Assembly (NCBI GenBank): GCA_011388275.1
Contig: DSAB01000082.1
Span: 1-21,640, forward strand
DNA length: 21,640 nucleotides
Source: a bacterium
Lineage (GTDB): Bacteria; Zhuqueibacterota; QNDG01; DSAB01
Direction: 5' to 3'
Both the position numbers and the translations under genes were made by a program. The notes under the pieces are model-generated. The model was not told the DNA's origin. It did not search any database and was given only the letters and a program-made list of their open reading frames with translations. Of this stretch, positions 19,520-21,382 are shown piece by piece. Each line of letters begins with the position of its first letter. Positions within the stretch are counted from its first letter, which is position 1.

Positions 19520-21382
19520 GTGAGTTTCATGTTGGATCCTGCTTGTGATATCAGGAATGTTCTGGTTGTGGGCAGCTGGGCCAAAGAGCAGATTACGCTG
19601 GAAAACCTGAACCGGTACGGTCAGTACAATCTCTATGCCTATATGGACACATCCAATCCGGCCGTTATCCGGCTGGTTCAGGACCATGCGATCGGAAAAT
19701 TTTCAAATATACAGCGCATCGCGGATTTTGCCCGGGATAAAGAGATCGATATTGCCCTGATTACCGCGGCCGCGCCTCTGGATGCGGGGCTCACCGATCT
19801 TTTGGAATCCCGGGGAATCACCTCTTTCGGGCCTGACCGCAGGGCCGCGCAGCTCGAGGCCAACAAGGCGTTTACCCGGCGCCTCATGAAAAAGTATGTT
19901 CCCAGGGCGATTCCCGAATTCGAGGTTTTTTCAAGCGCCGAAGATGCCGTCGATTACGCGCGGCAGATGGACTGGAAAGTGGCCGTGAAACCCCTGGGGC
20001 TGACCGACGGCCTGGGTGTTCGGGTTTATGGCGAACAGCTGGAAAACGCGGAAGCCATAGCCGATTATATCCACTATATTATCGATGAAGCCTATTCCGG
20101 ACACCCGGAAGTCATTATCGAAGAGAAGCTGGAAGGAGAAGAGTTCACGCTGCAATGTTTGGTGAACGATCTGTCGCTTGTGAATACGCCTTCGGTGCAG
20201 GATTTCAAGAAGCGGTTGCCCGGCGATCGGGGTGTGAACACGGCCAGTATGGGTTCCTGTTCGGACACGGATCATATGCTGCCGTTTCTGGGTTTCGCCG
20301 ATTATCAGGAGGCTTTTCGAATTATGCGGGAGACCCTGCAGGCATTCAGGAAAGAGACAGGGGGCATCTGCCGGGGGTTTCTCTACGGGCAGTTTATGAT
20401 CACGGATCAGGGCGTCAAGCTCATTGAATACAACTTCCGGCCCGGCGACCCGGAGTGGATCAATGTGATGTTTCTGCTGGAGGAAGACCTGCTGAACGGA
20501 GTCAAGGCGGTCTTACGGGGAGAGGAGACCAAGCTGAAATTCAGGAGGCGGGCAACCGTGTGCAAGTATATCGTTCCTCCTGAATATCCCATGAAACTCT
20601 ATCAGACTCTGGACGTGGCTTTTGATGAGGAGGAATTGAATCGTTCCGGAGCCCGTGTTTTTTTCAGCTGCGGTCAAGACAGCAGCGAGCGGCTTCAGGT
20701 GGGTTCGGAACGCGGTCTGGCGTTTATCAGTGAGAGTGAGAAAATTTACACGGCGTATAAGCGGGTCGAACGGACCATCCGCATGGTGCAGGGAGATTTT
20801 TATCACCGCCGCGATATCGGAACGCAGGCCATGGTCCGCAGAAAGATCCGTCATATTGAAAAAGTCCGGAAAGTGCGGGTACAAGAGCCGGTTTTTCAGC
20901 GGGCATCGGAGGCGGATTTTCTCGAGGTCTTTGATATGGTGTCGAAAATGCCTCCTCTGGAACCGTATCAACCGCATTTATTCAAGATCATTCTGAGATA
21001 TTTTCAAAACACCTGTTTTGTCGCCCGGTGCGGAGACCGTCTGGTCGGTTGGGTGATGGGTTTCCGTGACCAGACAAACCCTGAAACCTATTTTCTGTGG
21101 CAGATCGGCATTCTGCCGGCGATGCAGGGCAGCGGATTGGGCACGAGTCTGATGAAATATGTCGTGAAAGAGATGGCGGAAGCCGGTGCCGGGCGGATCG
21201 AGGCAACCATCGATCCGGAAAACACCGCGTCTCAAAAATTGTTTGAAAAACAGGGATACCGGAATATCAGCCGTTGTATCGGTGAAACGGCCAGTCTATG
21301 CGGCAATCAGGCGGTGATCGATTATTACGGGCCGGGAAGACATTTTATGGTGTATGAAAAAATCCTGCAAGAAACGAAGTGA
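19520..21382 (+). CDS. Fusion protein: a complete PurD-like ATP-grasp ligase (GARS N/A/C domains, about 450 aa) joined to a C-terminal GNAT N-acetyltransferase domain (about 160 aa)
   Basis: Segments align to E. coli PurD as I remember it: [58 protein letters not shown] and [27 protein letters not shown]. The PurD GxGGREHA motif is replaced by GSWAKEQI. The C-terminus carries GNAT motif A ([11 protein letters not shown]) and a CoA-binding core. SD GGGGAAAGGAG, 40 bp after the ATPase stop. Confidence 0.85.
   Translation: [620 protein letters not shown]

Follow-up and report, generated by a model that had tools for sequence, protein, structure and literature searches.

A PurD-like ligase fused to an EctA-like acetyltransferase and its candidate role in a β-lysine-derived osmolyte pathway

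The subject of this study is a fusion gene on contig DSAB01000082.1 (assembly GCA_011388275.1) of a bacterium from the Zhuqueibacterota, analyzed here as a single stretch of 21,640 nucleotides (nt) that we refer to as the window. The gene (19529..21382, plus strand, as are all features assigned to it below) encodes an ATP-grasp ligase resembling PurD, the glycinamide ribonucleotide (GAR) synthetase, followed by a GNAT acetyltransferase domain resembling EctA. Judged from its sequence, the product is almost certainly a PurD paralogue from an uncharacterized family and not a housekeeping GAR synthetase. Relatives of the gene lie in operons with lysine 2,3-aminomutase, and we consider it, on balance, probable that the enzyme joins glycine, or an amino acid much like it, to β-lysine and performs an N-acetylation, yielding a neutral compatible solute. 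A full-text literature search with incomplete coverage found no description of a PurD-GNAT protein or of an aminomutase/ATP-grasp/acetyltransferase operon, which is absence of evidence only; it turned up nothing to contradict an earlier, preliminary description of the gene, which knew of no characterized PurD-GNAT architecture.

Pfam profiles recognized GARS_N (53 bits, residues 13-113; the N-domain, 19556..19858) and GARS_A (136 bits, residues 114-312; the ATP-grasp A/B domains, 19859..20455) in the window protein, with residues numbered throughout from a GTG start that gives 620 amino acids (aa). The match to GARS_C (25 bits, residues 346-435; the C-domain, 20555..20824) remained under the 34.8 cut-off. 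In an AlphaFold2 model computed with 32 homologues as input (mean predicted local distance difference test score (pLDDT) 89.5), the first ~440 residues superposed on the ATP-bound Aquifex PurD structure 2yw2 with a target TM-score of 0.90 and a root mean square deviation of 2.6 Å, and the remaining solved PurDs ranked next as structural matches. The superposition indicates that all three PurD domains are present, as the preliminary description had held, with the GARS_C region recognizable in the model by its fold and not by its Pfam score. The model also shows, in its secondary structure, a long linker helix (residues 436-454, 20825..20881) between the ligase and the GNAT domain (residues 456-615, 20885..21364).

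Ligand-binding residues of PurD were transferred to the window protein via a phmmer alignment to 2yw2, and their conservation was read from an alignment of 32 family members (A1), in which the other 31 share 44-62% full-length identity with the window protein. Aquifex PurD binds ATP through K103, K143, E185, E192 and K214, Mg through E100, and glycine through D212, R287 and E292 (PMC8880213); human GARS contacts glycine via D217, R292, D295 and E297, and its sulfate site is formed by Arg13 and Arg292 (PMC2978367). The counterparts of the ATP, Mg and glycine residues in the window protein (E113, K116, K157, E201, E208, K230, D228, R307, D310 and E312) were invariant across all 32 members. The same holds for the Mg ligands E303 and N305, which lie together with the glycine-site counterparts R307, D310 and E312 within residues 303-313 (20426..20458; roles according to PMC8880213 and PMC2978367).

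The acceptor side has been rewritten. A GGREH motif and a B-loop Lys are conserved in the GARS enzymes compared previously, and Glu14 of human GARS has been proposed to orient the ribose of phosphoribosylamine (PRA) (PMC2978367). In the present family GGREH is converted to SWAKE: the Arg is exchanged for K22, the Glu is kept and a Gly is invariantly changed to W20. The block GSWAKE (19571-19588, within the N-domain) was found in all 32 aligned sequences and in no fewer than 95% of 52 family sequences taken from loci. Likewise, the PurD B-loop GLAAGK reads GLTDGL in the family (GLTDGLGV in the window protein, 19997-20020), with an invariant Leu (L165) at the position of the Lys. Other family-invariant exchanges relative to PurD turn GPE into TTA, DHKR into DFKK, NTGGMG into NTASMG and LYAGLM into LYGQFM, and GGRV is replaced by SERG (E397-R398-G399, within the C-domain), in which Arg398 is retained in every member. 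All family motifs, including SERG and the EctA-like GNAT, are present in the window protein, and the motifs quoted in the preliminary description (among them GSWAKEQI and GLTDGLGV) and the GNAT motif QGSGLG could all be located in the translation. The residue pattern across the family thus indicates that the donor/ATP half of the active site was preserved and the acceptor half rebuilt, and the earlier proposal of a PurD paralogue as opposed to a true PurD holds up on both counts: ATP, Mg and glycine residues are kept, and GGREH and the B-loop Lys are invariantly replaced.

An exhaustive HMMER scan of 1.8 billion representative proteins separated the family from canonical PurDs. Full-length members scored at least 499 bits and one divergent partial fusion 349 bits, and canonical PurDs followed below a score gap at no more than about 310 bits and 36-41% identity. 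These lower-scoring proteins carry GxGxREH and are fused to PurF, PurN, PurC or FolD; the closest canonical relative is an archaeal-type PurD (P0206; 40% identity). A neighbor-joining tree was computed from 53 ligase domains with two canonical PurDs as the root; in it the PurD-like family was monophyletic. Using P0206 as the query, no second purD was found in about 0.8 Mb of collected locus DNA, and a survey of about 90 loci revealed no conserved purine genes beside the ligase. Two divergent, unfused relatives from short contigs, P0207 (L092:1199-2542, 313 bits) and P0205 (L094:1930-3240, 332 bits), are 38-40% identical and carry related yet different N-terminal motifs (GRWAKEE; ANEAREE) and loops (GLTDGFGV and CLTNGLGV), implying that the PurD paralogue group is broader than the GNAT-linked family.

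The C-terminal GNAT fusion, also part of the preliminary description, was confirmed by a match to Acetyltransf_1 (68 bits, residues 479-580) and by the acetyl-CoA motif QGSGLG (21125-21142). The domain gave its best matches to EctA, both in the profile TIGR02406 (81 bits, not reaching the 120.6 cut-off) and among solved structures (P. lautus EctA, 6sjy/6sk1, E 2e-17). It shares with EctA the blocks F-x-W-Q and T-x-x-P-x-N-x-A-S, whose positions are family-invariant. The window GNAT is 50% identical to a stand-alone GNAT of 171 aa that is encoded directly after an unfused PurD-like gene in Methanoperedens. A BLASTP comparison to Methanoperedens AblB yielded no significant similarity (E 0.09), and the stand-alone Methanoperedens orthologue did not match the profile TIGR03827, on which true AblB proteins score 332-348 bits. 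Neither ectB nor ectC was found in the window or the surveyed loci. A fusion of the GNAT to the ligase was seen in 31 loci, and 37 others encode it as a gene of its own behind the ligase, usually overlapping by 4 nt; of 15 further loci, 12 break off at the contig end and three have an unrelated gene in this place. Fused or as the next gene, the GNAT is the constant partner of the PurD-like ligase in all but two or three of the loci in which the contig continues.

The genomic setting of the relatives was surveyed by tblastn and open reading frame (ORF) clustering in 97 loci (duplicates included), gathered through exact-protein look-ups and pattern scans. The metagenome scan used ligase motifs alone and was hence unbiased toward any neighbor gene; linkage was counted in the 57 non-redundant loci that offered at least ~1.3 kb of upstream DNA or an identifiable upstream gene. 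A lysine 2,3-aminomutase shared the operon of the ligase in 51/57 loci. It lay directly upstream on the same strand in 46/57, with gaps of mostly -4 to +24 nt and frequent 4-nt overlaps, and in 3/57 (L045, L048 (518-3190) and L049, on independent contigs) aminomutase and ligase formed a single ORF of 890 aa; two of the 57 loci showed the order AblA-AblB-PurD-like. The aminomutase is 65-84% identical across nearly all linked loci, reaches 792 bits with TIGR03820, the AblA equivalog (cut-off 525), and aligns to the Clostridium subterminale enzyme 2a5h with an E value of 5e-155, conserving Asp293 and Asp330, the residues that we take to bind lysine. By these matches, the linked aminomutase is of the AblA (osmolyte) type and not EpmB. 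Such a conserved operon partner points to β-lysine as the changed amine substrate of the ligase.

The triad of aminomutase, ligase and GNAT occurs in several lineages. The closed 3.3-Mb genome of Methanoperedens nitroreducens holds it in the order mscS-ablA-ablB-purD-like-GNAT-second KamA-family gene. It is also present in metagenome-assembled genomes (MAGs) of the Promethearchaeia (Asgard; with a 4-nt overlap) and the Vicinamibacteria and in Omnitrophota, and a family member from Caldatribacteriota is named among the homologues. A Methanoperedens ligase/GNAT pair lies within 3034918-3050318 of contig JAOSKX010000001.1 (GCA_030069165.1), and GCA_964542915.1 (window clade) and GCA_053530035.1 are carrier genomes as well. 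The Methanoperedens operon ynaI(mscS)-kamA-ablB is salt-induced and yields Nε-acetyl-β-lysine, and the genes following kamA-ablB were labelled 'unknown function' in that salt-stress study (PMC11337218). The supplements of PMC11337218 do not mention purD, and its quantitative PCR primers matched none of the surveyed loci; its strain therefore differs from the Methanoperedens loci examined here. In four Methanoperedens loci (L039:11820-13634, L082, L088 and L096:8858-10672), the gene right after the GNAT encodes a second KamA-family radical-SAM protein of 604 aa. This protein is 34% identical to the AblA-type enzyme, has Lys at the position of Asp293 and finds its best equivalog in glutamate 2,3-aminomutase (258 bits; cut-off 650).

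Beyond the aminomutase, the neighborhoods of the relatives are an osmotic and ion-homeostasis setting. MscS channel genes were found near the ligase in 13 loci and Na+/solute symporters in five, with Na+/H+ exchangers, TrkH, Usp, Band7/NfeD, an amino-acid ABC transporter, Na/Ca exchangers and DUF1646 recurring as further neighbors; one locus contains DapB and trehalose-phosphatase/glycosyltransferase genes. The suggestion of a compatible solute, made in the preliminary description, is strongly backed by these neighborhoods.

In the mechanism we favor, the PurD-fold domain would activate glycine, or an amino acid of comparably small size, as its acyl phosphate, and the acyl group would pass to an amine of β-lysine instead of PRA, with the β-lysine supplied by the AblA-type lysine 2,3-aminomutase. 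The ε-amine would be the preferred attacking group, because the distance from the ε-N to the carboxylate in β-lysine resembles that from amine to phosphate in PRA. The carboxylate, in turn, would be accommodated in the former phosphate site near K22 and R398, since basic residues of the PurD anion site survive as these two. The EctA-like GNAT would then acetylate a remaining free amine with acetyl-CoA. As β-lysine carries a charge of +1, which glycylation leaves as it is, a single acetylation should yield a zwitterion without net charge, such as Nε-(N-acetylglycyl)-β-lysine (C10H19N3O4, monoisotopic mass 245.138), which would act as a compatible solute. Zwitterionic neutrality is what makes N-acetylated diamino acids usable in this role (PMC9049628). 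In the window organism, the aminomutase would have to be encoded elsewhere. In this scheme we infer which two substrates are used, which step comes first, what the product is and that it serves as an osmolyte; alternatively, the GNAT could act first, in the manner of AblB, and the β-amine would be glycylated afterwards.

More broadly, we see a real possibility, if one short of probable, that a widespread and unrecognized pathway of AblA, a neofunctionalized PurD-type ligase and an EctA-like GNAT makes a new β-lysine-derived compatible solute, such as N-acetyl-glycyl-β-lysine with a predicted [M+H]+ of 246.145. It would be carried by anaerobes not yet in culture, among them Asgard archaea, ANME-2d Methanoperedens, Caldatribacteriota and Omnitrophota, and its ligase would have come from the purine pathway, as an ATP-grasp enzyme converted to the acylation of an amine on an amino-acid side chain.

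Several observations weigh against the glycyl-β-lysine proposal. No aminomutase accompanies the ligase in 6/57 loci (the window, L003, L009, L012, L015 and L073), and none was found in the window or the next 10 kb downstream. In L060, L068 and L069, the ligase is followed by an unrelated gene on the opposite strand and a GNAT is lacking. The Methanoperedens operon holds a genuine AblB beside the ligase/GNAT pair, so that acetyl-β-lysine is already provided for there. Moreover, glycine specificity cannot be read from sequence alone, which leaves another donor as an alternative, and β-lysine could itself be the acyl donor. Finally, the window protein narrowly passes the NCBIfam purD equivalog TIGR00877 (308 bits; cut-off 288), which explains why every named homologue (set P0001-P0201) is publicly labelled phosphoribosylamine--glycine ligase. 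Together with the intact glycine and ATP sites, this score and label would suit a housekeeping GAR synthetase with a functionally silent GNAT appendage, a scenario that the preliminary description had entertained. We regard it as highly improbable: no member retains GGREH or the B-loop Lys, the genes reside in aminomutase or osmotic operons, with no conserved purine genes beside about 90 surveyed loci, canonical PurDs form a separate, lower-scoring set, and the GNAT is conserved whether fused or separate.

The missing aminomutase could also mean that the enzyme of the window clade has been turned to another amine, such as α-lysine, ornithine, diaminobutyrate or a polyamine, and makes a different acetylated glycyl-amine, which would agree with the heterogeneous neighbors of the six loci and with their including all evaluable members of this clade. 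In the tree, the loci without an aminomutase (the window, L003, L009, L012-L014 and also L015) group as a single clade surrounded by clades that have the linkage, a position indicating that linkage was lost secondarily. The clade differs from the rest by one fixed ligase-domain substitution (N115 in place of D; S in canonical PurD), with no differences inside the rebuilt acceptor motifs and all family invariants kept, and unlinked genes can still cooperate. On this evidence recruitment to another amine appears unlikely, and the simplest reading is that the chemistry in the window clade would be unchanged and the aminomutase encoded elsewhere in the genome. We give similarly little weight, and if anything less, to an alternative route to Nε-acetyl-β-lysine in which the GNAT replaces AblB and the PurD-like domain has an accessory task, for instance in salvage, in regulation or in ligating something other than β-lysine. 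The chemistry of EctA, acetylation of a diamino acid at its distal amine, is also that of AblB, and AblB is missing from almost all AblA-linked loci, so an EctA-like GNAT might take its place. Yet linkage to AblA is equally tight for ligase and GNAT, the ligase being fused to AblA in three loci and always encoded between it and the GNAT. The catalytic residues of the ligase are invariant, too, and Methanoperedens retains AblB together with the ligase/GNAT pair. β-Lysine is found in antibiotics and in the modification of elongation factor P (EF-P), which raises the prospect of a product of another kind, namely a secondary metabolite, a signalling compound or a macromolecule modification that contains β-lysine; extra enzymes, namely a PAPS-reductase-like gene in 10 loci and the second KamA-family radical-SAM gene of Methanoperedens, would fit such an outcome. 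It is nevertheless quite unlikely, considering that the loci show no nonribosomal peptide synthetase, polyketide synthase, resistance or export-cassette context, that mechanosensitive channels, ion exchangers and solute transporters dominate among the neighbors, and that the aminomutase is of the AblA type. An ATP-dependent, ectoine-like ring closure of acetyl-β-lysine was dropped from consideration, as ATP-grasp enzymes activate carboxylates and a PurM-like neighbor occurs in one lineage only.

Some relatives carry additional genes next to the fusion. In 10 loci of one bacterial lineage (L020, L021, L025-L031 and L084; for example L026:2955-3701), a PAPS_reduct-domain protein of ~245 aa, ATP-pyrophosphatase-like, is encoded directly downstream and may provide an extra pathway step. 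Two associations are confined to single lineages: a PurM-like (AIRS/AIRS_C) gene right upstream of the aminomutase (L034:7321-8355), and a PurE/LarB-like (AIRC) gene right downstream of the fusion (L032:11046-11993), in a locus with a divergent aminomutase (41% identity). L028 contains a GGDEF gene and, ~2 kb downstream of the fusion, a c-di-GMP-I-GGC riboswitch (13535-13625; 60 bits, just over the gathering score). A riboswitch search detected no lysine or glycine riboswitch ahead of the window gene or eight related operons.

As to the gene itself, an uninterrupted ORF spans 19520-21382 and encodes 620 aa if translation starts at the GTG at 19520. Direct reading of the sequence revealed the Shine-Dalgarno motif AAGGAG at 19515-19520, followed by an 8-nt spacer and an ATG at 19529. 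Because this ribosome-binding site overlaps the GTG, the latter is disfavored as a start; the start codon is probably ATG 19529 and the protein 617 aa long, the length of the public gene call P0001, which is 100% identical to the window protein.

Directly upstream lies a gene for a P2-type cation ATPase of 913 aa (16738..19479, plus strand). Its end precedes the GTG by 40 nt, the distance reported in the preliminary description, and the more probable ATG start by 49 nt; no terminator-like site was seen between the two ORFs, and co-transcription is plausible from this arrangement. The ATPase scored under the cut-offs of all Ca2+-ATPase equivalogs, so the Ca2+ label given to it earlier was not upheld. 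Its linkage to the ligase is no feature of the family: apart from the window, a similar ATPase was found only near the Methanoperedens locus L011, and the recurrent partner of the family is the AblA-type aminomutase. A Na_H_Exchanger-PTS_EIIA_2 gene follows 340 nt downstream of the fusion, with two-component and sigma-54 regulators next. This neighborhood fits ion or osmotic homeostasis, and it is not conserved in the window clade.

Farther away, the minus strand of the window encodes an RRM_1 RNA-binding protein homologue of ~90 aa (8395-8679), 11 kb from the fusion; an RRM_1 protein is encoded directly downstream of the fusion in L018, L070 and L078, and its presence in the window is probably coincidental. 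A GH130 (mannoside phosphorylase family) gene and a gene for a GT4 glycosyltransferase of 762 aa (4752-7984, minus strand) overlap by 4 nt, the GH130 ORF starting at 5699 and the GT4 ORF ending at 5696; they might be a pair for the synthesis of a glycoside, conceivably a solute. An S9-family peptidase of 899 aa (13732-16431, minus strand) is encoded near the fusion gene, and fragments of a similar gene (Peptidase_S15, Tricorn_N; 11510-13083) were seen in L003, close to a homologue that shares 62% identity with the window protein, possibly as remnants of synteny.

At least several hundred public proteins carry the name phosphoribosylamine--glycine ligase, almost certainly wrongly, since the curated purD model passes them. 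The TIGR00877-based naming of the family looks like a systematic misannotation, and it can falsely 'complete' purine pathways in MAG-based reconstructions. What the triad of AblA, PurD-like ligase and GNAT predicts, in turn, is an osmolyte, or a branch of β-lysine metabolism, that is not yet known. The organisms carrying the triad are relevant to research on methane cycling and eukaryogenesis, and their stress physiology is barely accessible. The ligase also offers a case in which an ATP-grasp enzyme of core metabolism would have retained its donor site and swapped its acceptor site.

Set against known systems, the window ligase shares with PurD (EC 6.3.4.13) the same four-domain ATP-grasp fold, the same ATP, Mg and glycine contacts and presumably the acyl-phosphate mechanism. 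Identity between the two is only 27-41%, and the window family, unlike PurD, lacks conserved purine genes beside it in the surveyed loci and is instead joined, by fusion or operon, to the GNAT and lysine 2,3-aminomutase. EctA, the L-2,4-diaminobutyrate Nγ-acetyltransferase, is the closest relative of the GNAT domain; its D33 and Y38, which presumably bind substrate, align with E481 and H486 of the window protein. The preliminary description had pointed to Ngg, the N-acetylglutaminylglutamine amide synthetase, as the nearest functional analogy. As a functional likeness the comparison stands, Ngg being another osmolyte-making acetyltransferase plus ATP-grasp. At the sequence level the two differ: the Ngg profile TIGR03103 gave 32 bits (cut-off 569), the GNAT is closest to EctA, and Ngg has a GNAT followed by a RimK-type ATP-grasp, the window protein the opposite order and a PurD-type ATP-grasp.

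The last comparison is with the AblA/AblB pathway to Nε-acetyl-β-lysine, reportedly described by Pflüger et al. in 2003. Here, too, the operons of relatives of the window protein are led by an AblA-type aminomutase, a GNAT performs an acetyl-CoA-dependent step, and salt-stress genes are close by, with mscS directly upstream in Methanoperedens. The differences are that the GNAT is not AblB and that an ATP-grasp ligase has been added, so the end product should differ; in the window, moreover, AblA is not adjacent. Taken together, the system would represent a new variant of AblAB β-lysine and EctA-type osmolyte biosynthesis, built on a neofunctionalized ligase of the purine pathway.

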